The notes: a model not told the origin generated them from the letters alone. 64,000 bases of DNA from Dehalococcoidia bacterium (GCA_965261885.1 CBDHDY010000042.1:2250-66249); one strand, 5' to 3'; shown: positions 13,089-61,047, counted from the stretch's first letter. Program-made: numbers and translations.

Positions 13089-13922
13089 ATGCCCGGCAAC
13101 AAGCTCACCATCGGAAACGTCGAGATAACTTCCCTCTCCGACGGCCTTCTGGAATTTGACCTCTGCAACTTTTTCCCGGCCATTCCTGAAGAGGACTGGC
13201 ACGGCCACGAGAGTCACCTCAGCCCCAGCGGCGGCGTCCGTTTCAACCTCGCCTGCTTCGTCATTCGCTCCGAGGGCCGTACCATCGCGGTGGACACTGG
13301 CTTGGGTCCCAAGCCAACGCCGGAAACTCCGTGGGGCGAGCTGCTCAATGACTTTGCCGCCCACGGAATGAAACCCGAGGACGTGGACATGGTGGTCATG
13401 ACCCACGCCCACCGCGACCATATCGGCTGGAACGTCGTGTCCCAGGGCGGCAACTACGTTCCCACCTTCCCCAACGCCCGTTACTACGTCAGCGCCAAAG
13501 ACTGGGAGGCCTGCCACGACCCTGCGCTGATCGAGACGCGGTTCCCCAACGCCCCCGACTGCGTCTGGCCCCTGGAGGGACTGGGTGTGCTGGAACTGAT
13601 GGAGGGCGAGCAGCAACTGACCAGTGAGCTGACAATGCTCCCCACACCTGGCCATACGCCGGGCCACATGAGCATCATGATTTCCTCCCAGGGCGAGCAG
13701 GGACTGGTGCTGGGCGACGTGCTGCACAACACGATCCAAATTGAAAACACCGACTGGGTGTCTCGCGCCGACATCGACCCGGAAACGACCCGCATCACCC
13801 GCCGCAAAATGATGGACCGGTTGGAGCGGGACGGCATACCCGTTGCCGCCGTCCACCTCGCCTCCCCCGGCTTCGGCCGCATCGTCCGCACCGAAGGGCG
13901 CCGCTACTGGCAAGCCATCTAA
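13089..13922 (+). CDS. MBL-fold metallo-hydrolase
   Basis: THAHRDHIGWN (HxHxDH) and later TPGHTPGH. Confidence 0.85.
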   Translation: MPGNKLTIGNVEITSLSDGLLEFDLCNFFPAIPEEDWHGHESHLSPSGGVRFNLACFVIRSEGRTIAVDTGLGPKPTPETPWGELLNDFAAHGMKPEDVDMVVMTHAHRDHIGWNVVSQGGNYVPTFPNARYYVSAKDWEACHDPALIETRFPNAPDCVWPLEGLGVLELMEGEQQLTSELTMLPTPGHTPGHMSIMISSQGEQGLVLGDVLHNTIQIENTDWVSRADIDPETTRITRRKMMDRLERDGIPVAAVHLASPGFGRIVRTEGRRYWQAI

Positions 13923-14137
13923 CCACCCGGGGAATGGCCGGATGGACGAACGCTATGAGTGGCGGCACCCCCATTGCCGCCAGCATCCTCAGGGTCGGCT
14001 TTGAGCTGGGGGTGCATTTCATCCACCGGGACAACACGGCACCGCTGTCTGCCCGGGGAGCGGTGTGGGCCGACTCAACAGCGAAGGTCGCGACTTAGCG
14101 CGACATAAAATTCACCTGCCTGCCCGGGCCGACCGAC

Positions 14138-14775
14138 ATGGAGAAAGTGCCCTTCGGCCCTGGCGGCATCCGGAAGGGGCTCGGTCAGGCTCGGTTTGCA
14201 TATACCGCACCACCAACTCTCCCCTGCTGGCCCGGCGGGGCACGAGGTCTTCGCCGAGAATGGTGTCGCAATGCTCGGCGCGCCAGTCAGCGGCGGGGTC
14301 GAGGAGGCAAAGGTGCGGGATCTCCCTGTGATGGCTGGGGAGACGAACCCACTTTCCTGCGTTGTCTGCCCGTGCTGGAAGCAATCTGGGACCGGGTGAT
14401 GCACAGAGGAGACATTGGGCGGATGAGTAACTTGTGGGGAAGGCAGCCCGACACCATCTTCCAAGGCGACTTCAAGGCCCGGCTCGCCCTGAAGACCGCT
14501 CACAAGAAACTGCGTCTGCGGGAAGAGTCGACCGAGCCTTACGAGTCACAATACCCTTGGCCGAAAAAGGCAGAGGCATCTACTTCCAGGCCGTGGCCCG
14601 GGTCTGGGAGGAAAACGACAGCTCGATAATGCAGCCCAAGCAGGAGGAGCTCGCTGGCGTCCAGGTACAGTTCGGAGGCAGCAAGACCTGGTTTCGGCAC
14701 CGCCCGCTGGTGGTGAGCTTGTCGAACAACGCGCCAGCGGTCAGCACACTGGGAGCCTGCCCCAAAACGGGCTGA
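14138..14775 (+). pseudogene. Decayed gene of unknown function (coding signal hops between three + frames)
   Basis: High third-position GC moves between frames. MEKVPFGPGG..WPGG switches at the G4 run (14237-14240) to HEVFAENGVAMLGAPVSGG... It switches again near 14385 to ..PVLEAIWDRVMHRGD..FQGDFKARLALKTAHKK.., and at the A5 run (14564-14568) to GIYFQAVARVWEEND..., ending at the stop at 14775. No single ORF spans the 890-bp gap. Confidence 0.4.
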
Positions 14776-14811
14776 CGGTCTCCCAACAAACGCGAATGCT
14801 GAGGCGGGTGT

Positions 14812-15207
14812 CTATGACCGCAACTCTGCCACTGCCTCCACTTCCACCAGAAAGTCCGGATCAGCGAGGCCGGCCACCACTACCGTGGTGCTGGTTGGGC
14901 GGCCCTCTGGCGGTAGCAACGTCATCCTGACCTCGCGGATCTTGCCCAGATTCTCCGAGCCCACGACGTAGGTCGTCGTCTTGACAATATCCTGCAGCGT
15001 TCCTCCCGCGGCCTTCACTGCCGTCTCTAGGTTGGCCCACACCTGCCGTATCTGCGCCGCCGCGTCCCCAACGTGCAGCGCCCTCCCGTCCAGCCCACGA
15101 GGCACCTGGCCGGAAATGTAGACCGTATTGCCAACCTTGACAACGTGGTTGTAGAGGTTGGCAGGAGGGGAGGCCAGCTCCGGCGGGTTAATGAATTCAC
15201 GTTCCAT
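14812..15207 (-). CDS. RidA/YjgF family reactive-intermediate deaminase
   Basis: 131 aa. Has VYISGQVP..., TTYVV..., and C-terminal FLVEVEAVA. Confidence 0.85.
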   Translation of the reverse strand: MEREFINPPELASPPANLYNHVVKVGNTVYISGQVPRGLDGRALHVGDAAAQIRQVWANLETAVKAAGGTLQDIVKTTTYVVGSENLGKIREVRMTLLPPEGRPTSTTVVVAGLADPDFLVEVEAVAELRS

Positions 15208-15321
15208 TTCAATACTCCTGGATTTGGTTCGGTATCGCGCTATTTTTGACTGCCTGCGCTATGATAGCAACCGCGCGATGAGTCAGCATCGAGGAAGCGC
15301 TTCAGGCTGCTGGAGGTAACT

Positions 15322-16545
15322 ATGCAGGCGATAGTTGGCGGCACTCTAATCGACGGTCTTGGCGGAGAGCCACTGGCCGACTCGGCAGTAATGATCGGAA
15401 ACGATGGCCGAATCGCTTCCGTAGGGCCACGAGCTGCGGTAGAACTGCCTGAAGGCACCGAGATATATGACATAACCGGCCAAACCGTGATGCCCGGCCT
15501 CATCGACTGCCATGACCACCTGGCTTCTTTCACTTACGACCTGCTCAGCCGATGGGGCATGACGGAGCCCCGAAGCACACGGACCGTCCGCATCGCCCGC
15601 GTAATCGAAGATACGCTCCAATCCGGCTACACCACGATACGGGACTGCGGCTGGCTGGACGCGGGGTTCAGGGTCGCCGTGGAAGAGGGCCTTATAACCG
15701 GCCCGCGGCTGCTCGTCGCCGCCGGCCCCCTGGGCCCCACCCACAGCGTGCAGGACCGGCCCACTATGTCGGGCCATCGGCGGTATTCGATGCCCGACCC
15801 CAACATCCCTTACGGCGTGGCCGACGGTGATGCCGAAATCCGCGCCGCCGTTCGCGAGAATGCCAGGGTCGGCGCTGATCTGATCAAGGTATTCCAGACC
15901 GGTTTCGGCCGGGCCACCCACCTGGGCACCGATGCCTGCTACGATCTGGAAGAGTTGAAGACGCTGGTGGCCGAGTCCCATGCGCAGGGCAAGCTGGTAG
16001 CCTGCCACGCCGTTGGCGGGCCGGGGCTGCGGACGGCGGTCGAGGCCAGCGTGGATTCTATCGAACATGGTTGCTACCTGGACCTGGATACCGACCTGCT
16101 GCGTATGATGGCGGACAATAACATCACGCTGGTCCCCACCCTCACCGTTTTCGCCCACCACTCCGCGGAGGGCAATCCGGTCGCCCAGGTGGAGGCGCGT
16201 GAGTTCCGGCAACACCACATTGAAACGGTTCAGCAGGCCATGCGGCTCGGGGTGCGGGTCGTCGCTGGTACTGATGCCGGCGGCTGGTTCCACGGCAACA
16301 ACTCCGTGGAACTGGACATGCTGGTCGACGCAGGCCTGACGCCCATGGAGGCCCTGATAGCAGGAACAAGCGAAGCCGCCGCCTGTTGCGGTCTCGGGAG
16401 CGACCTCGGCACGCTGGAGGCTGGCAAGCTCGCCGATCTGATCGTGGTGGACGGCAATCCGCTGGCTGATATAACCGTCCTGCAGGACCGGGAACGGGTC
16501 AAGGTCGTTATGAAAGAGGGCAGCATATACCGAAACCTGCTGTAG
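15322..16545 (+). CDS. Amidohydrolase family protein (paralogue of 11751-12968)
   Basis: MPGLIDCHDHL and ADLIVVDGNPLADI. It has the same overall layout as the first copy. Confidence 0.85.
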   Translation: MQAIVGGTLIDGLGGEPLADSAVMIGNDGRIASVGPRAAVELPEGTEIYDITGQTVMPGLIDCHDHLASFTYDLLSRWGMTEPRSTRTVRIARVIEDTLQSGYTTIRDCGWLDAGFRVAVEEGLITGPRLLVAAGPLGPTHSVQDRPTMSGHRRYSMPDPNIPYGVADGDAEIRAAVRENARVGADLIKVFQTGFGRATHLGTDACYDLEELKTLVAESHAQGKLVACHAVGGPGLRTAVEASVDSIEHGCYLDLDTDLLRMMADNNITLVPTLTVFAHHSAEGNPVAQVEAREFRQHHIETVQQAMRLGVRVVAGTDAGGWFHGNNSVELDMLVDAGLTPMEALIAGTSEAAACCGLGSDLGTLEAGKLADLIVVDGNPLADITVLQDRERVKVVMKEGSIYRNLL

Positions 16546-16614
16546 TCCCCACGAAATGCGTAAGGACGCACTGCTGTGCGCCCCCTGTGTGGTCCTGTCG
16601 GAATACCGGGAAGG

Positions 16615-17262
16615 CTACCGCTCCCAGCGGAAGCGGCTGTAAAGGCCGTGCTTGCCCTGCTCCTCCCAGGAAATGGCCTCGTCCATGATGCTCTGGTTGG
16701 AGCGGCCCAGTGTGTGAACATTGCCGTGGATCACGTTGCGCAGATTGGTGATGGTCGCTGTCCCCTCCGCATCCGCACCCCGGATCGCCTGCACCTCAAG
16801 CAGCACCAGGTCGGAGGCGCGGACCGTTCGCGACCGGGCGTCAATGGCGATTTCCAGCGGAACCTTCCTCACCACCGTCAGATCGCCGTCGCGATAAAAC
16901 TGGCTCAGGATCTCCCACGGGCCGCCCGCCATGCCGCTGAATATGGCGCGTGTCGCCTCGGATTGTTCCTCGCTGCCAGCGGCGTCGACGTACAGCACCG
17001 ACGTCCAGTTGCCGTCGGACATTGTCGGACCCGGAGAGTTTACGAATATCACCGCGCCCAGCCCGGCAAGATCAACCTCGCCATAGCTCCCCCTCTCGAA
17101 CGTCGCGGCCCAGATGGCGGTGCAGACGCCATTCGTCGGAGGCTGGCGAAACGATATGTGGCAGGGGCAGAGCAGGTTGCAGTTGCACCCCTCGAATAGT
17201 TCCCCCTCTACCCACCAGGAAACACTCACTGGAATCAGTCCCTCGATTTCTGCAATTTGCAA
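16615..17262 (-). CDS. DUF1326 domain protein
   Basis: The N-terminal W.VEGELFEGCNCNLLCPCHISF..PTNGVC signature is characteristic of DUF1326. Confidence 0.75.
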   Translation of the reverse strand: MQIAEIEGLIPVSVSWWVEGELFEGCNCNLLCPCHISFRQPPTNGVCTAIWAATFERGSYGEVDLAGLGAVIFVNSPGPTMSDGNWTSVLYVDAAGSEEQSEATRAIFSGMAGGPWEILSQFYRDGDLTVVRKVPLEIAIDARSRTVRASDLVLLEVQAIRGADAEGTATITNLRNVIHGNVHTLGRSNQSIMDEAISWEEQGKHGLYSRFRWER

Positions 17263-17271
17263 CTCATAATA

Positions 17272-17297
17272 CAGGGGCGCACGGACGTGCGCCCCTG
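17272..17297 (-). terminator. GC-rich hairpin downstream of the RdhA-like gene
   Basis: CAGGGGCGCAC-GGAC-GTGCGCCCCTG (11-bp perfect stem), 28 nt after the stop at 17325. On the minus strand it is followed by a TATTATGAGTT tail. Confidence 0.5.
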
Positions 17298-17324
17298 TAG
17301 GGTTCTCCGAAGGATCGGCGTCAG

Positions 17325-18608
17325 CTAGAACATCGTGCTGTCGGTGACGGCCTCGCCGCTCACGATGGTTTTCAGACGGTTGCGGAAGTCGAACAGCTTC
17401 TGGTCGTCCTCGGGCGTGGCGGGCTCTCCACGACGGGACTCAAGATGCTCGATGAGGTCCTCAAGGGCCGCGTTTTCGCGGGTGCCACTGGGGATCTTGA
17501 AGAACTCCGCATTGAAGGTGGGCAGTTCGCCAGGGCCGAAGTATCCAGTGGCGTACCTTCCCGTGTTTTCCTTGTGCAGGGTGTATCCTTCCAGGTCGTG
17601 GGTGCCCTTGCCCAGCACCTGCCCGGTCTGGGCGTAGTATTCCATCACATTCTTGGCACCGTACTTGTTGATCGGGCAGACCTTCATGCAGATGGCGCAA
17701 CCCTCGTAGCGCGACATAACGGGGCGGCAGCGCTTGTAGATCAGCTTGTTCTTTTCAACGCCGCGCCACCAGATCTTCTCGCGCATCAGGGCGCGGCCCG
17801 GGCAGCGGTTTACGCAGACCTGGCAGACCTGGCAGAAAGCGTGGAAGCCATAGTCGACCGGCTCGTCGTAGGTCACCGGCGCGTCGGTTGTGATGATCTG
17901 CAGCCGGCAGCGGGCCCCGGCGTGAGGAGTCAGCAACTGGCCGTTGGCTCCCAGCTGTCCCAGGCCGGCGGCCACGAACATTGGGATGGTGGCGGCGCTG
18001 TGGTTGCTCGGCCCGTGCACCTGTGCTCCGTAGCCCAGGGAGCGGATAAAGTCGGCCATTTCGAGGCCCATTGGTGCCTGGGTCTCGTAAGTCCCGTAGT
18101 GACCATGCTCGGCGGCCATGCTCGGTGCGGACTGCGTTTCCTCAAAGTCCTGCTCCAAAGCCAGGCAAACGGCATTGTAGAACTTCACGTGACTCTTGCG
18201 ATCCTGGTAGATGAAACGCTGGTCGTGGGCAGTGAATCCCACCTCCAGGTAGCCCATCTCCCGGGCTTTGTTGCGAATCAGATCCGTAACGTCCTCGCCC
18301 GTCGGAGTGCCCGTGGGCGGCAGGTCGCCGGAGCGGTTCATCAGCGGATAGTACTGCTCCATCACGGCCTGGTGCTCGTGGTGGTACTGCTGCATCTCCT
18401 CGGTGCCAACCGTGGGCGACCACTCGGTATCGGCCGCGTGCTCAACCTGTTGACGCTGGAGAGGATATTCCCGGCTGTAGAAGTCTACATCCTTATTGTT
18501 CATGGGAATGCCGGGTACTGTCTCCAGCTCCTCTGGAACCGGAATTTCCACCGGGTCGTCTCCGTGGCGACGGCCTGGACGCACAACGACATGGCCAATT
18601 TTCAGCAT
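17325..18608 (-). CDS. Reductive-dehalogenase-like (RdhA family) 2x[4Fe-4S] protein, no signal peptide seen
   Basis: CQVCQVCVNRCP followed by C..(10)..GCAICMKVCP, which is the RdhA-type cluster spacing. The ATG at 18608 is preceded by AGGAGGAG; the track ORF extends to 18713. No twin-arginine motif and no adjacent rdhB-like membrane anchor. Confidence 0.6.
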   Translation of the reverse strand: MLKIGHVVVRPGRRHGDDPVEIPVPEELETVPGIPMNNKDVDFYSREYPLQRQQVEHAADTEWSPTVGTEEMQQYHHEHQAVMEQYYPLMNRSGDLPPTGTPTGEDVTDLIRNKAREMGYLEVGFTAHDQRFIYQDRKSHVKFYNAVCLALEQDFEETQSAPSMAAEHGHYGTYETQAPMGLEMADFIRSLGYGAQVHGPSNHSAATIPMFVAAGLGQLGANGQLLTPHAGARCRLQIITTDAPVTYDEPVDYGFHAFCQVCQVCVNRCPGRALMREKIWWRGVEKNKLIYKRCRPVMSRYEGCAICMKVCPINKYGAKNVMEYYAQTGQVLGKGTHDLEGYTLHKENTGRYATGYFGPGELPTFNAEFFKIPSGTRENAALEDLIEHLESRRGEPATPEDDQKLFDFRNRLKTIVSGEAVTDSTMF

Positions 18609-20895: not shown

Positions 20896-20972
20896 TGGTG
20901 GGCGGTGCAGGACTCGAACCTGCGACCCCCTGCGTGTAAAGCAGGTGCTCTAACCAGCTGAGCTAACCACCC
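20896..20972 (-). tRNA. tRNA-Val (anticodon TAC)
   Basis: Reverse complement is GGGTGGTTAGCTCAGCTGGTTAGAGCACCTGCTTTACACGCAGGGGGTCGCAGGTTCGAGTCCTGCACCGCCCACCA. It folds as a cloverleaf with anticodon loop TT-TAC-AC and an encoded CCA. Confidence 0.92.
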
Positions 20973-26656: not shown

Positions 26657-26732
26657 TGGTGCGCTTGGCGAGATTCGAACTCACGGCCTCTGCCTCCGCA
26701 GGGCAGCGCTCTATCCACTGAGCTACAAGCGC
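26657..26732 (-). tRNA. tRNA-Arg (anticodon GCG)
   Basis: Reverse complement is GCGCTTGTAGCTCAGTGGATAGAGCGCTGCCCTGCGGAGGCAGAGGCCGTGAGTTCGAATCTCGCCAAGCGCACCA. Anticodon stem is CTGCC/GGCAG and the loop is CT-GCG-GA. Confidence 0.88.
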
Positions 26733-26766
26733 ACGATGGGTGCCGTTGGGCCAGCTTCGCTGGAGT

Positions 26767-26852
26767 TGGTGCCGAGGGAGGGATTTGAACCCACACATCC
26801 GTAAGGATACTGCGCCCTGAACGCAGCGCGTCTGCCGTTCCGCCACCTCGGC
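26767..26852 (-). tRNA. tRNA-Leu (anticodon CAG), long variable arm
   Basis: Reverse complement is GCCGAGGTGGCGGAACGGCAGACGCGCTGCGTTCAGGGCGCAGTATCCTTACGGATGTGTGGGTTCAAATCCCTCCCTCGGCACCA. The loop is TT-CAG-GG. There is one U-U mismatch in the T-stem. Confidence 0.85.
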
Positions 26853-26898
26853 CCGGGGAGCCCGGGCCGCCGCCCGGTTCTCGGAGTCCCTTACGACA

Positions 26899-26975
26899 TG
26901 GTGGGCGATGGAGGACTTGAACCTCCGACCTCCTCGGTGTGAACGAGGCGCTCTGACCAACTGAGCTAACCGCCC
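26899..26975 (-). tRNA. tRNA-Val (anticodon CAC)
   Basis: Reverse complement is GGGCGGTTAGCTCAGTTGGTCAGAGCGCCTCGTTCACACCGAGGAGGTCGGAGGTTCAAGTCCTCCATCGCCCACCA. The loop is TT-CAC-AC. Confidence 0.92.
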
Positions 26976-46691: not shown

Positions 46692-47414
46692 GTGGAAAAA
46701 ACAGCAGAGACCCTGAGTGAGATTACCAGCGACATCGTCTCATGCCGTCGTTGTCCTCGTCTGGTGGGGCATCGCGAGCACATCGGCGAAACGAAGCGCG
46801 CATCCTATTCCAATTGGGAATATTGGGCCAAGCCCGTTCCCAGCTTCGGTGACCCGGCTGCGCCTCTGATGGTGCTGGGGCTTGCCCCGGCGGCCCACGG
46901 GGGCAACCGGACCGGGCGGGTCTTTACAGGAGACGCCTCGGCCACATTCTTGATCAAGGCAATGTACGAGGCCGGCCTGGCCAACCAGCCGATCTCGGAA
47001 CACAGGGACGACGGGCTGGAATACACGGGAGCGTACGTCTGCGCCGCAGTGCGCTGTGTGCCCCCGCAGGATCGTCCCACGCCGGAGGAGCAGCGGACCT
47101 GCCTCCCTTACCTGGCGCGGGAAATGCGATCGCTGCCCAACCTACGAGTGGTGCTGGCCCTGGGCCAGATTGCTTTCCAGGCAGCCCTGAAGGCCATGGC
47201 GGAACTGGGGGCCAAACGCCCGAGGGCAAAGTTCGGGCACGGCGCTGTATATCACCTGGAGGAGGGGTTGCCGCTGCTGGTGGGTTGCTACCATCCCAGT
47301 CCACGCAACACTAACACCGGGCGACTCAAGATGGAGCAATTGGTGGAAACGCTGAAAATGGCAAAGAGCCTGGGGGAGGAAGGAGTGGTGATGGGGGGAA
47401 CTGGTAGGGCGTAG
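46692..47414 (+). CDS. Uracil-DNA glycosylase, family 5-like (UdgB type) with 4Fe-4S cysteines
   Basis: CRRCPRL and LGLAPAAHGGNRTGRVFTGD (GLAPA instead of the family-4 GE[AG]PG). GTG start. The last 13 nt overlap tRNA-Glu on the opposite strand. Confidence 0.8.
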   Translation: MEKTAETLSEITSDIVSCRRCPRLVGHREHIGETKRASYSNWEYWAKPVPSFGDPAAPLMVLGLAPAAHGGNRTGRVFTGDASATFLIKAMYEAGLANQPISEHRDDGLEYTGAYVCAAVRCVPPQDRPTPEEQRTCLPYLAREMRSLPNLRVVLALGQIAFQAALKAMAELGAKRPRAKFGHGAVYHLEEGLPLLVGCYHPSPRNTNTGRLKMEQLVETLKMAKSLGEEGVVMGGTGRA

Positions 47415-47478
47415 GGGATTTGAACCCCTGATCTCCGCCTTGAGAGGGCGGTGTCCTGGGCCGCTAGACGAACGCCCC
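47402..47478 (-). tRNA. tRNA-Glu (anticodon CTC)
   Basis: Reverse complement is GGGGCGTTCGTCTAGCGGCCCAGGACACCGCCCTCTCAAGGCGGAGATCAGGGGTTCAAATCCCCTACGCCCTACCA. The loop is CT-CTC-AA and the D-arm is Glu-type. The G1-U72 pair is a wobble. Confidence 0.88.
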
Positions 47479-53772: not shown

Positions 53773-54050
53773 TACTGCTCTCCCACTCTGGCGATTGTGC
53801 GGAACCGGCAGTTCGTGGTGCCGTGTGCACTGCCGGTGCCCGGTGAACCCAGAATGCGCCGATGATACGCCCGCCCCTGTTGGCGGTCAAGGACGGCGCG
53901 CGGCTAGGCCGCGCTTCTTGCGTTTGTTGACCGCCTATTCAGGCACAGCTATCATCCCATCGCGGACTTGGGCGTAGTGAGCGCATCCTTCCCTTCCTTC
54001 TTATAATAAAGAGACTTTACAAGGCAAACGGCGGAACATCAGGAGGAAGC

Positions 54051-56807: not shown

Positions 56808-56990
56808 AGACTAGCCGGACTCAGCTGCTGACAGTGCAATCGCGTCTCTACTGTCCTACAGCACTCTCGCCGAGTTGCGGCGAAGCCTTTTCACGGGAAC
56901 GCGAAAGCCATACCGCCACTGACAGTCCGTTGGACTGCCTGTTCGGGCAATGATAGTATAGGGCCGGTTCGCCTTTGTGCACTGGCCCTT

Positions 56991-57002: not shown

Positions 57003-57086
57003 GACAACATTCAAATTAGTGGAAACTTTCGAGCCTCATTCCTTCAGTAATTAATTCAATCGACTGCGCTATGCCCGGAGGACAGC

Positions 57087-60000
57087 TTGCCCGATATATT
57101 GGAAATTATTGACCTGCCCGACAGCGGACAACTGCAACTCTCTTTACTGGGCGATGATGGCAGTCGCCTGAGTGCGCCACCTGTCTCCTTCCCCTACCCG
57201 CTGACCGATGCAGAGTTGGCGGAGATGGTCTGGCTATTCACGGAATATTCTTCAAGCCCCTTTGGCGAGTCTCGAGCGAGGGCCGATGCGGTGGAGGCAG
57301 GGCTGCGCGACCTGGGACGCCTGGTGCTGGAAGCAGTATTTCGTTCCAACGCAGAGGCTGAGGGGATATGGTCCCGGATCAGTTCAATTGATGCACAGGC
57401 CTTCCGGCTTTCCATAGTCTCCCCACGCCCTGAACTCCTGGCCCTTCCCTGGGAGTTGCTCAACAGCCCGGACGCCGGGTACCTGGCCGCTCGCGCTGAG
57501 GCATTGACGCGTCAGGTGAGTTCTCTTGATCAGCTTCCTTCATTCTCCACTGCTGGGCTTCCCGACACCCAATTCAATGTACTCATGTTATGTCCACCCA
57601 GCAGTCAGGGCATTGCCTCCGAGGCTCTGGAGGCCATGGAATCGCTGGACGTTGAGGTGTCCCTGGAATGTCTGAAGCCCCAGACTGTTGGTGAACTGGA
57701 AGCTCACCTGGCAGACCGGGCGGGGCATTACCACCTGTTGCATCTAGACGGAATTGCCACCGACAACGAGGGCTCCCACCTCTTGGGGACCGCATCCCTG
57801 GAGCGAATAGGGAAAGCCGCAGCGAGCTCAGGTATTCCCGTCGTGCTGCTTAGCTGCGCCACTCCCTGCTATCCTCCCGTCGCAGCCGAGGTCTTGCTGA
57901 AGAGCGGCGTGCCTGAGGTGGCAGTGTTGCCGGTACCCCTGGGAGGGTCGGGCCGGAAGCTCTTCGCAGACGCATTCTACTCCGCCATAGCCCACGGAGA
58001 AGGTGCCGCCTCCGCTGTCGCGCATGCCCGTCGCGCCCTGATGCTGAACCCTTACCGCCCCTCCGCCGCCGGACCGGTGGTTTCGTGGGACTGGATCACA
58101 CCACTGTCTTACCAGTCGGCCCGTTATGAGCCAGTGGCGATAAAGCCCGAAGAACAGGAGACAGTCATTCCGGGCATGCAGCCCGCCACGCCAGAACCCA
58201 CGCCGCGTCAGCTGCCCCGAGGTGGACCATACGGCCTGATTGGCCGCCGCCGCGAGGTCCTGGAACTGGAGACTGCCCTCGACGCCAACCCTGTCGTACT
58301 TTTGAACGGACCCGTGGGAGTCGGAAAATCCGAAGTCGCATTGGGGCTTGCGGCCTGGCTCGAGAAGAGCGGTGACCGGCACGATGGTGTTTTTTATACC
58401 ATCTTTGACGTAGGAGCAGGGTTGGACAAGGCCTTGCACGAGGTGGGGACCGCCCTGGCCGGTCTGGAATTCGGAGATCTCCCGGCCTTGGCCCGCCGCA
58501 ACTGGCTCCTCGAGTACCTGCGAGGGCACCGGACCCTTCTGGTGTGGGATGCAGTCGAGAACCTGGCTGGTTTCCCCTACGCAGGAACCGGGCTGCTTGA
58601 AGGCAGCGAACTGGCTGAACTGGACGAGTTCCTGCGCGAGTTGTCCGCAGACGGCGGACAGACCGAGGTGCTGCTGATCAGCCGCCGGGACACCGAACCG
58701 TGGATATCGGCCTCCCACGGGAGCTACACGCTGAAGGGTCTTACCGGCAACGAAAGAATCGAGTTCGCCACGCGCCTGATCGAAGAGACCGGCATCGACC
58801 CCGCCCGTCTGGGTCCGGAGTTCCTTGAACTACTGGAACTGCTGGATGGCCACCCGCTGGCAATGGAGATGGTAATTCCTCTGATCAAGGATGTGCCAGC
58901 CTCGGTACTGCTCACCGAACTGCGCCGCGAGATAGAGGCCTACCAACCCGGCCCCGGAGAGGATGGTCGCCCACCATATCTGACGGCAGTGATGGAACAC
59001 GCATTCGGGCGGATGCCGCGCCGCAATCGTACCCATCTACCCTTCCTGTCGCTATTCCGCAACCGCGTTATGATGGACATTCTGACCCACATCACTCAAG
59101 AAAATGCCTACCGGTCGGTGATGGGCGAACAACTTGGTTGGGGAGCCTGCCGCACCCTGCTGCGGTCGGCCCGGATTGCCGGCTTCCTGGAACCAATCAC
59201 GCCCAGCGTCTACCAGATTCACCCGTCAATGGGCTGGTTCTACGGCCGTGCTCTTTACCGGCAGCTTCCCCCTACGCGGGTCGCCGAGCTCGAGAAGGAA
59301 TTCGTGCGAGTGTACGCCGACACGGCGGACTACTTCATGGAGACCCTGTACGAGAACCAGGACTCGGGGACCAATGCCATCCTGGCCGAAGAGGGCAACC
59401 TGACGCAGGCCCTCGGCCTGGCAATGGAGTCCCAGGAGTGGGACAACGCCCAGCTTCTCACCCAGCCTCTGGCCCAGGTATACCGGATGCAAAAGCGGTA
59501 TCCGGAACTGCGCCGTCTGCGCCGTCAGTTGCTGGACGCCGCCGGAACCACGGCCGACGAGGCGCAGGCCAACGACGCCACCGAGCTCTGGCTCTACCTG
59601 CTGGGGACCGAGGCCTCGGAGTGCATCGAAACCAACGAGCTTGGCCGGGCAGACGCCCTCAACCAGCAGTTGCTGGAGTACTTCGCCTCCCAGCCCGGAG
59701 CAGAGAGTGATCCGAGGGCCGCAGCCGTTTACCACCAGATGGGTGAGGTCGCCCTGCGGCGCTGGCAGCTGGATGAGGCCGAGGATTGGTACATCAAGTC
59801 GCTTACCATTATTGAAGATATCGAAGATGGCGAAGACCGCGCACCGGTTGCCGACGACTACTATGGCATGGGGCTCGTCCGCCAGTACCAGAGGCGGTAC
59901 ACCGAGGCACGTGACTGGTTCTCCAAGTCACTGGACATCCACCAAAGGCTTGAAGACGTGGAGGAGATGGTCAAGGACTACCGCTCCCTTGGGCTGTGCG

Positions 60001-60701
60001 CCCAGTTTCGCTTTGAATACCAGGAGGCCGAAAGCTGGTACCACCGGGCCCGCGAGATCCTCGAGGAGGCGCGCGACGAAGAAACCTCTGTGCTCATTTA
60101 TCACGCTTTGGGCACGGTGGCGCACGCCCAATACCAGTTCGATGACGCCGAAAACTGGTACAAGCAGGCACTGACCCTCAGCGACCGGATGGGCAACGAA
60201 GCCCAGATGGCAGTGGAATTCCACTACCTCGGCCTGCTTGAACAGGGACGTCAGATGTTCCCAGAGGACGCGGAACGTTGGTACACCCTGGCTCTCGAAA
60301 AATACGAAAAACTGGGCGACTGGCGCAACGCCGGCGACGAATGCCGCCAATTGGGCGTCTTGTTCCACGAGCAGAAGAAGCTGGACGAGGCCGAAAGCTG
60401 GTATCACCGGGCCCGCGAAATTTTCGAGGAAATCCAGGACGTCAGCCGCACCGCGCGAACTTATGGGCAGCTGGGCATGGCAGCCGAGGAGCGAGAAGAC
60501 ATCGAAGGCGCTCTGATCTGGGCTGCCCGCACGTACAATCTGGCCGCCGACCACTACCTGCCCGTAATCGCGCAGGCCCGCGTCCATCTCGCTAGGCTGC
60601 GCGACAAACAAGGCTCCGACGCCTTCGCCGAGTGGTGGCGCAATTTTACCGGCGAGGAACCTCCGGCAGACATCGACGCGGAGGAAGAGGTGATTCTGTG
60701 A
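57087..60701 (+). CDS. CHAT (caspase-like) - NB-ARC/STAND NTPase - TPR protein (bacterial NLR/Avs-like)
   Basis: 1204 aa; TTG start 5 nt after GGAGG. CHAT-like part: LALPWELL, HYHLLHLDGIA, VVLLSCATP. NTPase part: Walker A GPVGVGKS, Walker B LLVWDAVEN, and GHPLAMEMV (GxP motif). The C-terminal ~450 aa are TPR-like repeats (..AEDWYIKSL.., ..ARDWFSKSL.., ..AESWYHRAREI.. twice, ..AENWYKQAL.., ..AERWYTLAL..). Confidence 0.8.
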   Translation: MPDILEIIDLPDSGQLQLSLLGDDGSRLSAPPVSFPYPLTDAELAEMVWLFTEYSSSPFGESRARADAVEAGLRDLGRLVLEAVFRSNAEAEGIWSRISSIDAQAFRLSIVSPRPELLALPWELLNSPDAGYLAARAEALTRQVSSLDQLPSFSTAGLPDTQFNVLMLCPPSSQGIASEALEAMESLDVEVSLECLKPQTVGELEAHLADRAGHYHLLHLDGIATDNEGSHLLGTASLERIGKAAASSGIPVVLLSCATPCYPPVAAEVLLKSGVPEVAVLPVPLGGSGRKLFADAFYSAIAHGEGAASAVAHARRALMLNPYRPSAAGPVVSWDWITPLSYQSARYEPVAIKPEEQETVIPGMQPATPEPTPRQLPRGGPYGLIGRRREVLELETALDANPVVLLNGPVGVGKSEVALGLAAWLEKSGDRHDGVFYTIFDVGAGLDKALHEVGTALAGLEFGDLPALARRNWLLEYLRGHRTLLVWDAVENLAGFPYAGTGLLEGSELAELDEFLRELSADGGQTEVLLISRRDTEPWISASHGSYTLKGLTGNERIEFATRLIEETGIDPARLGPEFLELLELLDGHPLAMEMVIPLIKDVPASVLLTELRREIEAYQPGPGEDGRPPYLTAVMEHAFGRMPRRNRTHLPFLSLFRNRVMMDILTHITQENAYRSVMGEQLGWGACRTLLRSARIAGFLEPITPSVYQIHPSMGWFYGRALYRQLPPTRVAELEKEFVRVYADTADYFMETLYENQDSGTNAILAEEGNLTQALGLAMESQEWDNAQLLTQPLAQVYRMQKRYPELRRLRRQLLDAAGTTADEAQANDATELWLYLLGTEASECIETNELGRADALNQQLLEYFASQPGAESDPRAAAVYHQMGEVALRRWQLDEAEDWYIKSLTIIEDIEDGEDRAPVADDYYGMGLVRQYQRRYTEARDWFSKSLDIHQRLEDVEEMVKDYRSLGLCAQFRFEYQEAESWYHRAREILEEARDEETSVLIYHALGTVAHAQYQFDDAENWYKQALTLSDRMGNEAQMAVEFHYLGLLEQGRQMFPEDAERWYTLALEKYEKLGDWRNAGDECRQLGVLFHEQKKLDEAESWYHRAREIFEEIQDVSRTARTYGQLGMAAEEREDIEGALIWAARTYNLAADHYLPVIAQARVHLARLRDKQGSDAFAEWWRNFTGEEPPADIDAEEEVIL

Positions 60702-61047
60702 CCGGGATGCTCGCCAGAAACCAGCTCAACTTGAAACATGTCTTCGATCTGGGAGATGGTTCGCTGCTGCCGCCTGTCCATGCCGAACAGAATGCGAACT
60801 TTTAGGACTGGATGCCACTCTATGGAACACCGAAAGTTACCAATGACCGGGATGACGGTATCATGCGTCTGCAAAACGGCAAGGCTGCCGCTGCATTCCA
60901 TTCCATGGCAATGAACCTGACTGAAGGCGGCAAAGATGAAGGCCTGCCCGTATACGTGGAGATGACTTGGGCCGCTGAATCGCTACTGCCCTACCCGCTA
61001 TCCGCACCCGAAGATGTAATTGCTTACACCACCAGGAGGTAGAACTT

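Follow-up and report, generated by a model that had tools for sequence, protein, structure and literature searches.

A SAR202 CHAT-STAND-TPR protein with a predicted non-catalytic CHAT-like domain and a conserved chromosomal position

The 64,000-nucleotide stretch of a Dehalococcoidia bacterium genome analyzed here (GCA_965261885.1, CBDHDY010000042.1:2250-66249; referred to below as the window) contains a large plus-strand gene at positions 57087–60701, whose product combines a CHAT-like caspase-fold domain, a STAND NTPase and an array of TPR repeats. The architecture is an ordinary one; the testable oddity, and what makes the gene worth pursuing, is that the effector-type domain appears to be dead throughout a clade of the marine SAR202 lineage in which the gene behaves as a core gene. 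According to published work, SAR202 bacteria are abundant in the deep ocean, and within the searchable library of papers we found nothing on this protein family, nothing linking SAR202 with CHAT, and nothing relevant on a bacterial CHAT pseudoprotease. The reading we prefer, to which we give a probability of about 0.55, is that the gene encodes a STAND-type (bacterial NLR-like) molecular switch that responds to a conserved, probably endogenous ligand and acts through a non-catalytic pseudoprotease platform. Judging from sequence comparisons, it appears to descend from a family of CHAT-protease-STAND-TPR proteins, with the CHAT domain having become a pseudoprotease in the whole SAR202/Dehalococcoidia clade.

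Catalytic dyad of the CHAT-like domain

A profile of the clade's CHAT region, searched against 1.84 billion cluster representatives, matches 7620 proteins at E≤1e-3. Most of the top matches are 1000–1300 residues long with the CHAT domain at approximately residues 100–380, which is the architecture seen here, and 128 of the 150 listed relatives also match the NTPase and winged-helix region. In the distant relatives (about 30% identity) two boxes are very highly conserved, [FY]H[IL]VHFDGHG and P[LIV][FV]VLNAC[QRK]SA, and both the catalytic His and the catalytic Cys are present in 124 of 135 more distant relatives, the exceptions including the sequences nearest to the SAR202 clade. The corresponding segments in the window are as follows.

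57726–57758, plus strand: His box HYHLLHLDG-I223-A224, with Ile223 (ATT, 57753–57755) at the position of the catalytic His and Ala224 at that of the following Gly
57837–57863, plus strand: Cys box P251-VVLLS-C257-A258-T, with Ala258 (57858–57860) at the position of the catalytic Cys and Cys257 (57855–57857) at that of the preceding Ala

In an L-INS-i alignment the first of these pairs with the ..HFDG-H-G of the canonical relatives, and the residues I-P-V-V-L-L-S-C257-A258 pair residue for residue with V-P-L-F-V-L-N-A-C; the strands E217-223 and E252-257 predicted by AlphaFold2 (AF2) agree with this assignment. The arrangement in DdvA is similar, with the dyad His where a beta8-beta9 turn ends and the Cys within a beta12-beta13 loop (PMC11506125). 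The replacement extends across the clade: among 83 species-level genomes none has His at column 223 and none has Cys at column 258 (0/83 in each case), and a set of 120 orthologues has F, V, I, M, A or L at position 223 and S, A, T or N at position 258. A preliminary description of the gene, made from the sequence of the window, had reported that the catalytic His is replaced, which the comparison of HFDG-H-G in the relatives with HLDG-I-A here bears out. It had also reported that the dyad Cys is retained; this is a register error, as Cys257 pairs with the Ala that precedes the catalytic Cys, and it is compounded by poor conservation, with Cys257 found in 57 of the 120 orthologues and 26 of the 83 species. 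The motifs it listed are all present, namely LALPWELL (residues 118–125), HYHLLHLDGIA (214–224), VVLLSCATP (containing Cys257), GPVGVGKS (408–415), LLVWDAVEN (484–492) and GHPLAMEMV (588–596).

A number of non-catalytic CHAT residues are kept family-wide (PWE121-123, R142, H219, D221, G222, R315, R324, D335 and W336), and we considered whether the protein could be an active Cys or Ser protease of a non-canonical kind, with, for example, Cys257, or the Ser258 of other orthologues, paired with His219 or His216. The near invariance of His216, His219 and Asp221, the Cys at position 257 in this protein, and the Ser at position 258 in many orthologues would all be in keeping with such an activity. 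However, His216, His219, Asp221 and Gly222, which vary little or not at all in the clade, are equally conserved in the canonical relatives, and because those relatives keep the true dyad we regard the four residues as structural rather than as a replacement dyad. Furthermore, no nucleophile is conserved at position 257 (C, A, G, S, F or T) or at position 258 (S, G, A, T or N, and never C in the 83 genomes), and this protein has Ala at the canonical Cys position, so that we consider a non-canonical protease highly improbable. Three possibilities had been raised for the effector at the outset (that it is inactive, uses a different His, or acts as an adaptor), and the evidence favors an inactive domain or an adaptor. 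The whole SAR202/Dehalococcoidia clade is thus predicted to carry a pseudo-CHAT domain, one that has the CHAT fold but is not a CHAT protease.

Domain organization

The open reading frame runs over the 1204 codons first reported, and its parts are listed below, where residue numbers are those of the protein and pLDDT is the predicted local distance difference test score.

57087–60701, plus strand: whole coding sequence of the pseudo-CHAT, STAND NTPase and TPR protein; an uninterrupted reading frame of 1204 codons plus stop, with a TTG start
57087–57413, plus strand: N-terminal beta/alpha domain (residues 1–109), without a Pfam family; AF2 strands at 3–29, helices at 41–100, pLDDT about 90
57414–58121, plus strand: CHAT-like caspase-fold domain (residues 110–345), predicted to be non-catalytic; PF12770 and Foldseek
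58227–58706, plus strand: STAND NTPase core (residues 381–540); Walker A GPVGVGKS at 58308–58331, Walker B LLVWD488 with E491 at 58536–58562, and a sensor-1-like S532-R533-R534
58707–59321, plus strand: helical and winged-helix modules (residues 541–745); GHPLA at 58848–58862 and an MHD-like YQIH712P with its His at 59220–59222
59322–60611, plus strand: alpha-solenoid sensor (residues 746–1175); a helical linker followed by about 8–10 TPR pairs
60612–60698, plus strand: C-terminal tail (residues 1176–1204); conserved F1180, W1183, W1184, F1187 and P1193, and an acidic end

The tripartite layout of CHAT fold, STAND NTPase and TPR array is real. The N-terminal domain is common to the wider CHAT-STAND-TPR family, and the CHAT region of the relatives also begins at about residue 100. 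The CHAT/caspase-like module proposed earlier is supported in three ways. First, the Pfam CHAT family PF12770 matches residues 110–322 with 31.1 bits against a gathering score of 24 (E 2.2e-7). Secondly, an AF2 model of residues 1–385 built on 52 orthologues has a pLDDT of 86.5 and a predicted TM-score of 0.86. Thirdly, the best matches of this model in the PDB, as found with Foldseek, are all CHAT proteases or CHAT-containing proteins, and include separase (E 1.9e-8), the DdvA anti-sigma factor (3.7e-8), Csx29 of Craspase (3e-7) and SAVED-CHAT (1.6e-6). At the level of sequence, the clade profile of the CHAT region finds only chance-level matches among PDB sequences, the best with an E value of 0.44.

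The central domain is a genuine STAND NTPase. In 120 orthologues the Walker A motif (G408..G413-K414-S415), L484-L-V-W-D488, R533/R534, GHP and H712 are invariant or nearly so, as are G588-H589-P590-L591 and the MHD-like Y709-Q-I-H712-P in their full extents, which are nearly invariant. A profile of the NTPase and winged-helix region that includes distant relatives has PH0952 (6MFV) as its best match in the PDB (2.7e-11), followed by the NB-ARC protein Roq1 (2e-6), the NACHT protein NLRP14 (4e-6) and Apaf-1 (5e-4); the Roq1 match covers profile positions 6–291, and the printed PH0952 alignment takes in the GHPL motif. The preliminary description had specified an NB-ARC NTPase, and this narrower family assignment is not established: PF00931 has no match at E≤1 in the Pfam scan, in which the NTPase matches are weak (AAA_22, at 26 bits against a cut-off of 27, AAA_16 and nSTAND3). 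We note that Glu491 (58557–58559), which lies three residues after the Walker B Asp in LLVWD-x-x-E, is Gln in 28 of the 120 orthologues, these forming a clade with 57–60% identity; the change resembles the classic hydrolysis-dead Glu-to-Gln substitution, a hint that some family members may hydrolyze ATP slowly or have no need to do so.

The winged-helix stretch at 59013–59261 (residues 643–725) is the most conserved of the family (MPRRNRTHLPFLSLFRNRVMMDILTHITQE...PSVYQIHP), yet its AlphaFold pLDDT is about 28, which may reflect low diversity in the alignment. The TPR array was correctly recognized at the outset, with TPR_12 (1.2e-30), TPR_2, TPR_10, TPR_1 and TPR_MalT matching across residues 860–1190 in the Pfam scan. 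An AF2 model of residues 376–1204 (pLDDT 78.9) has a P-loop alpha/beta core, helical modules and a regular solenoid of helix pairs, with pLDDT above 90 in the TPR helix pairs; in Foldseek it matches PH0952 over its full length, as well as the TPR superhelices of LGN/Pins with TM-scores of about 0.75–0.84 normalized to the target. The C-terminal tail has the motif F..WW..F.GE.PP.D followed by an acidic stretch, and a similar W..F.G..PP is found at the C-termini of two canonical, dyad-bearing relatives (P0142 and P0149); the tail may be a family-wide autoinhibitory or docking peptide.

Distribution, gene order and selection

More than 120 full-length homologues with 57–84% identity and near-constant length were recovered, and those that are named are from Chloroflexi or SAR202. 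A scan of one genome per GTDB species identified 187 genomes with a relative, and the best 80 of these, which were examined in detail, encode full-length proteins with 50–83% identity, are all Dehalococcoidia, SAR202 or Chloroflexota metagenome-assembled genomes, and, with one exception, have a single copy each. The exception is B80T1B5, with two full-length copies (L062 and L066; 53% and 50% identity) on the short contigs JADFQT010000196 and JADFQT010000144, reflecting either a true paralogue or a mixed bin.

The neighbors of the gene in the window are genes for two thiamine pyrophosphate (TPP) enzymes (TPPa and TPPb), a short-chain dehydrogenase/reductase (SDR), a luciferase-like oxidoreductase (LLM) and an MmgE/PrpD protein, and its non-coding flanks measure 279 bp and 346 bp. 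When the window neighbors were located by tblastn, the order AIRS-PALP-FmdA-TPPa-TPPb-(SDR)-gene-LLM-PrpD was found almost everywhere, including the clade with 50–53% identity. The gene thus sits alone among metabolic genes in the window, as first described, but it is not an isolated insertion, its position being conserved by inheritance.

Conservation along the protein is lowest in the N-terminal and CHAT-like parts and highest in the winged-helix/helical region and the TPR array. The same pattern is reflected in the ratios of nonsynonymous to synonymous substitution rates (dN/dS), given here as Nei-Gojobori medians for 14 close pairs.

Whole gene: 0.10
N-terminal domain: 0.18
CHAT-like domain: 0.19
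NTPase: 0.085
Helical and winged-helix modules: 0.10
Helical linker: 0.07
TPR: 0.05

All of the domains are under purifying selection, and the TPR sensor has the lowest dN/dS, the reverse of an arms-race pattern. These values also indicate that the pseudo-CHAT domain is still constrained and that the gene is not decaying; a decaying pseudogene is ruled out by a dN/dS of about 0.1 and by the full length of the gene in all of the retrieved genomes (1184–1370 residues).

The constancy of the neighborhood raises the question of whether the protein senses a metabolite or peptide and regulates the catabolic genes on either side of it (TPP enzymes, SDR, LLM and PrpD), following a MalT/AfsR-like logic through protein-protein contacts, for instance on a pair of extracytoplasmic function (ECF) sigma and anti-sigma factors. 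This would overlap with the switch that we prefer. The gene is constantly found beside these catabolic genes across about 80 species, the protein shows similarity of the TPR_MalT type, PH0952, its nearest relative of solved structure, is a STAND protein of signaling rather than of defence, and an ECF sigma and RskA anti-sigma pair lies about four genes downstream in loci L001 and L002. Nevertheless, shared gene order by itself says little where a core region is inherited vertically, the gene is preceded by a promoter-like element of its own (see below) and has non-operonic flanks, and the ECF pair is non-adjacent and was seen in the two loci examined. The Pfam scan revealed no helix-turn-helix or other DNA-binding domain, which also rules out a transcription factor of the MalT/AfsR type proper. 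We consider a dedicated regulator of the flanking genes unlikely.

Relationship to defence genes

The preliminary description had put the gene forward as an Avs-like defence candidate. The layout on which this was based is present, but the label is weak: the CHAT and NTPase parts have no match in PADLOC v2.0.0 at E≤0.01, where only a generic TPR model and no Avs model is found; there is no match in 50,697 phage records; and the TPR dN/dS is about 0.05. Nor is the distribution that of an accessory gene or defence island, as some 80 species-level genomes have the gene in one and the same syntenic slot. Matches on plasmids are only to distant canonical relatives (about 30% identity), which occur on conjugative plasmids of Tolypothrix, Nostoc and Microchaete and also in Streptomyces, Nonomuraea and Acidisarcina. 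The Tolypothrix copy, which has HFDGHG and LNAC, adjoins an integrase gene, an HNH gene, and giant trypsin-like and caspase-family genes.

Defence-type genes do occur as cargo in the two slots that flank the gene in other SAR202 genomes. They encode AIPR (three genomes), a fusion of a methyltransferase with Mrr/NA-iREase1 (two genomes), an Mrr-ResIII helicase of 1756 residues (one genome) and a methyltransferase-HNH protein (two genomes), the last occurring with DUF2283; one of the AIPR genomes also has a downstream MmeI-like methyltransferase gene and three PaREP1 genes. Both slots are empty in the window itself. The locations are as follows.

L006:8059-9831, L016:3305-5026, L019:8033-9823, L033:8018-9997 and 13707-18152, L050:8003-9985: flanking defence-type cargo
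L020:13764-19031, L024:14562-16073, L025:14582-16096: flanking defence-type cargo, further loci

Operon-like junctions such as LLM-PrpD and FmdA-TPPa almost never take insertions, and the insertions beside the gene may mark permissive, non-operonic sites rather than a functional link. The divergent TPPa/TPPb intergenic region (53773–54050 in the window) is a further insertion slot, exceeding 1 kb in 10 of 53 loci, with cargo that includes type IIG restriction-modification genes of the Eco57I/MmeI-like kind and ABC permeases (L010:3113-6523, L023:3616-7014 and L026:4878-5855), and open reading frames of 590–617 residues without a Pfam match (L060, L065 and L070). Small genes of the Uma2 family (restriction-endonuclease-like) are located between the TPP enzyme and SDR genes at L001:5326-5885 and L002:6766-7137, and in L001 a pair of N6_N4 methyltransferase and PLDc_2 genes replaces the FmdA and TPPa genes.

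These contexts bear on an alternative in which the protein is a fixed, Avs-like bacterial NLR that serves as an innate-immunity or abortive-infection sensor; its TPR array would recognize a conserved phage protein, and its dead CHAT domain would be an adaptor recruiting or activating a separately encoded effector, in the manner of pseudo-caspases and CARD-type adaptors. The effector-NTPase-repeat layout fits this alternative, as does the presence of the parent family with intact dyads on conjugative plasmids, beside genes of the kinds described for Tolypothrix. The cargo adjoining the gene in other SAR202 genomes lends weak support; restriction-modification insertions are also found in the TPPa/TPPb slot, which may mean that the flanks are no more than permissive, non-operonic sites. 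Conservation of the sensor alone would not disqualify the alternative, given that the viral folds recognized by Avs sensors are themselves conserved; the TPR array has, nonetheless, the lowest dN/dS of all the domains. Other considerations pointing away from an immune sensor are the missing PADLOC model, the single fixed position shared by about 80 species, the retrieved genomes showing no patchy distribution, and the fact that no conserved effector gene is adjacent. We regard this alternative as doubtful.

A proposed mode of action

We propose that the pseudoprotease switch would operate in four steps. The C-terminal TPR solenoid would bind a ligand that is conserved and most likely a peptide or protein made by the cell itself; binding would relieve autoinhibition and allow ADP/ATP exchange on the intact NTPase; the protein would then oligomerize, bringing the N-terminal CHAT-like modules together; and the clustered pseudo-CHAT modules would constitute a binding platform that sequesters or recruits a partner. 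Ligand-gated oligomerization is suggested by analogy with Apaf-1, MalT, Avs and PH0952. The output of the CHAT domain could not be proteolysis, because Ile223 and Ala258 replace the His-Cys dyad, and it is most plausibly non-catalytic because the modules are without both dyad residues clade-wide and yet are constrained; we infer from this a scaffold or adaptor output. A sensor under extreme constraint, one copy per genome and an unchanging locus together favor a ligand that is conserved and probably endogenous, and a role in housekeeping or regulation, and the gene looks more like a domesticated signaling switch than a typical mobile anti-phage gene.

A more far-reaching proposal, which we hold as possible but tentative, is that the protein is a domesticated NLR: an ancestral CHAT-protease sensor of immunity or conflict, like those on the plasmids of multicellular bacteria today, would have become fixed in the SAR202 core genome, lost its dyad, and been exapted for housekeeping as a switch driven by ATP, with the TPR array sensing a conserved endogenous ligand and a pseudoprotease scaffold passing on the signal, and with a possible tie to the flanking catabolic cluster or to stress-sigma signaling.

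Several observations weigh against an endogenous switch with a scaffolding output. First, the assignment of the dyad positions comes from sequence alignment to canonical relatives together with the predicted strand ends. Secondly, the parent family with its intact dyad occurs in conflict islands on cyanobacterial and actinobacterial plasmids, and restriction-modification or abortive-infection genes lie directly beside the SAR202 gene in about eight other genomes, which leaves room for an immune role. Thirdly, no adjacent gene is conserved in all clades as a candidate for the recruited partner, and no second CHAT gene is present in the window or in 83 loci of about 20 kb, with none within 10 kb of the gene. 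Lastly, conservation of the sensor could also accompany recognition of a highly conserved viral protein, by analogy with Avs sensors.

Bacterial NLR-like and STAND proteins are now read almost automatically as anti-phage effectors, and the SAR202 clade offers a counter-example that spans about 190 species genomes with a relative, those examined having a dead effector, a most-constrained sensor and a fixed, inherited locus. If the protein is indeed a scaffold pseudoprotease, it would give a tractable example, in prokaryotes, of a receptor architecture of the immune type that has been redeployed in cell-intrinsic signaling, with eukaryotic parallels in non-immune NLRs and pseudo-caspases, and a warning against annotating such genes as defence genes from architecture alone. 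Should a fixed immune adaptor be the correct reading, an effector acting in trans and a conserved viral target would be implied for the uncultured marine Chloroflexota.

Comparison with known systems

The closest relatives, and the parent family, are the CHAT-STAND-TPR proteins of filamentous cyanobacteria, actinomycetes and acidobacteria represented among the 7620 matches above, with WP_045873804.1 from a conjugative plasmid of Tolypothrix sp. PCC 7712 as an example. The SAR202 protein shares with them the order and spacing of the N-terminal domain, CHAT, NTPase/winged-helix and TPR regions, a total length of about 1000–1300 residues, about 30% identity over residues 30–860, and the motifs PWE, YHxxHxDG, GxGKT/S, LLxWDxxE, GHP, hHP and the C-terminal W..F.G..PP. 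The parent family keeps HFDG-H-G and LNA-C and is found in plasmid and conflict-island contexts, whereas the SAR202 clade has lost both residues and is chromosomal and syntenic. The clade also has a hyper-conserved winged-helix/TPR region (VYADTADYFMETLYENQ and QVYRMQKRYPELRRLRRQL), neither of which was seen in those distant relatives whose alignments were inspected. The SAR202 protein is a derived, chromosomally fixed and, from its dyad positions, catalytically dead subfamily of the large CHAT-STAND-TPR group of multicellular bacteria.

The likeness to Avs and other bacterial NLR-like proteins lies in the N-terminal effector-type domain (predicted to be inactive here), the central STAND NTPase and the C-terminal TPR-rich sensor. 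Ligand-induced oligomerization has been described for Avs2-5 and Avs7 (bioRxiv 10.64898/2026.08.25.746987), and by analogy is expected, rather than observed, for this protein. Unlike Avs, it has no PADLOC v2 match, its effector is dead, it is core and syntenic rather than accessory, and its sensor is under the strongest purifying selection; of the features of Avs membership that can be tested (profile match, accessory distribution, variability of the sensor) it shows none. Avs structures are absent from the top 50 Foldseek matches of the model of residues 376–1204.

Among solved structures the best match is PH0952 of Pyrococcus horikoshii (PDB 6MFV), a STAND protein with a TPR sensor, which is similar in the NTPase and helical modules, aligns with the model of residues 376–1204 over 837 columns (E 2e-10), and has the motifs GxGKT, hhhhD, TTR/SRR and GHPL in common with it. 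It differs in that its chain of 641–653 residues aligns only with residues 376–1204, at about 13% identity, and the CHAT module therefore has no counterpart in PH0952. The CHAT-like domain shares its caspase-like fold with separase, Csx29 (the TPR-CHAT protein of Craspase), SAVED-CHAT and DdvA (Foldseek E 2e-8 to 3e-4, TM-scores of about 0.4–0.54 normalized to the query), but it departs from the solved CHAT proteases in having Ile and Ala at the dyad positions, and sequence identity is 9–16%. Pseudoproteases and pseudo-caspases can act as scaffolds or regulators, examples being c-FLIP and the pseudo-protease domain of separase. As in pseudoproteases of the c-FLIP type, a protease fold appears to have stayed under selection after catalytic loss, and its function would be binding or regulation; this is an analogy only, with no homology beyond the fold. 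DdvA was considered as a precedent for a non-catalytic CHAT domain and ruled out, as it keeps a canonical His-Cys dyad (H862/C907), like separase and craspase (PMC11506125).

Translation start and upstream elements

Three features precede the coding sequence.

56930–56959, plus strand: promoter-like element, with TTGGAC (56930–56935), an 18-nucleotide spacer ending in TGa, and TAGTAT (56954–56959), 157 nucleotides 5′ of the start codon
56961–56988, plus strand: inverted repeat GGGCCGG-N14-CTGGCCC, directly after the -10-like box and followed by TTCCTTATA
57077–57082, plus strand: Shine-Dalgarno sequence GGAGGA, 4 nucleotides 5′ of the TTG start and kept in orthologous upstream regions

The TTG start is credible because of this GGAGGA and because the N-termini of more than 100 orthologues align to it. 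The upstream block GTTGGAC..TGATAGTAT (GTTGGAC-N18-TAGTAT, with a TG extension) emerged only from comparison of orthologous loci, in 50 of 84 of which it is present 62–280 nucleotides 5′ of the start; a generic scan for sigma-70 promoters and terminators found nothing convincing at the gene flanks and did not call it. The block is kept at the nucleotide level across clades with 50–83% protein identity and is present also in loci with foreign genes inserted upstream, which suggests that the gene heads its own transcription unit, with TTGGAC/TGATAGTAT as its putative promoter. The inverted repeat is kept only in the clade of the window, with both of its arms varying. Because the repeat would overlap the predicted site of transcription initiation, it may serve as an operator or form a 5′ hairpin, or it may be the terminator of the SDR gene.

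On the other side of the gene, an Abhydrolase_10 gene (PF20091, about 650 residues) lies directly 3′ of the orthologue in 34 of 82 loci, all of them from the more divergent clades and often with a gap of 20–50 nucleotides (for example, L003:11658-13625 and L051:15243-17231). It is absent from the window and its close clade, and the 346-bp downstream spacer (60702–61047) contains no remnant of it; the gene could be an ancestral operon partner lost by the clade of the window. An Rfam scan of the 64-kb window detected no family near the gene and none other than five tRNAs, all on the minus strand: Val-TAC (20896–20972), a cluster of Arg-GCG, Leu-CAG and Val-CAC (26657–26975), and Glu-CTC (47402–47478).

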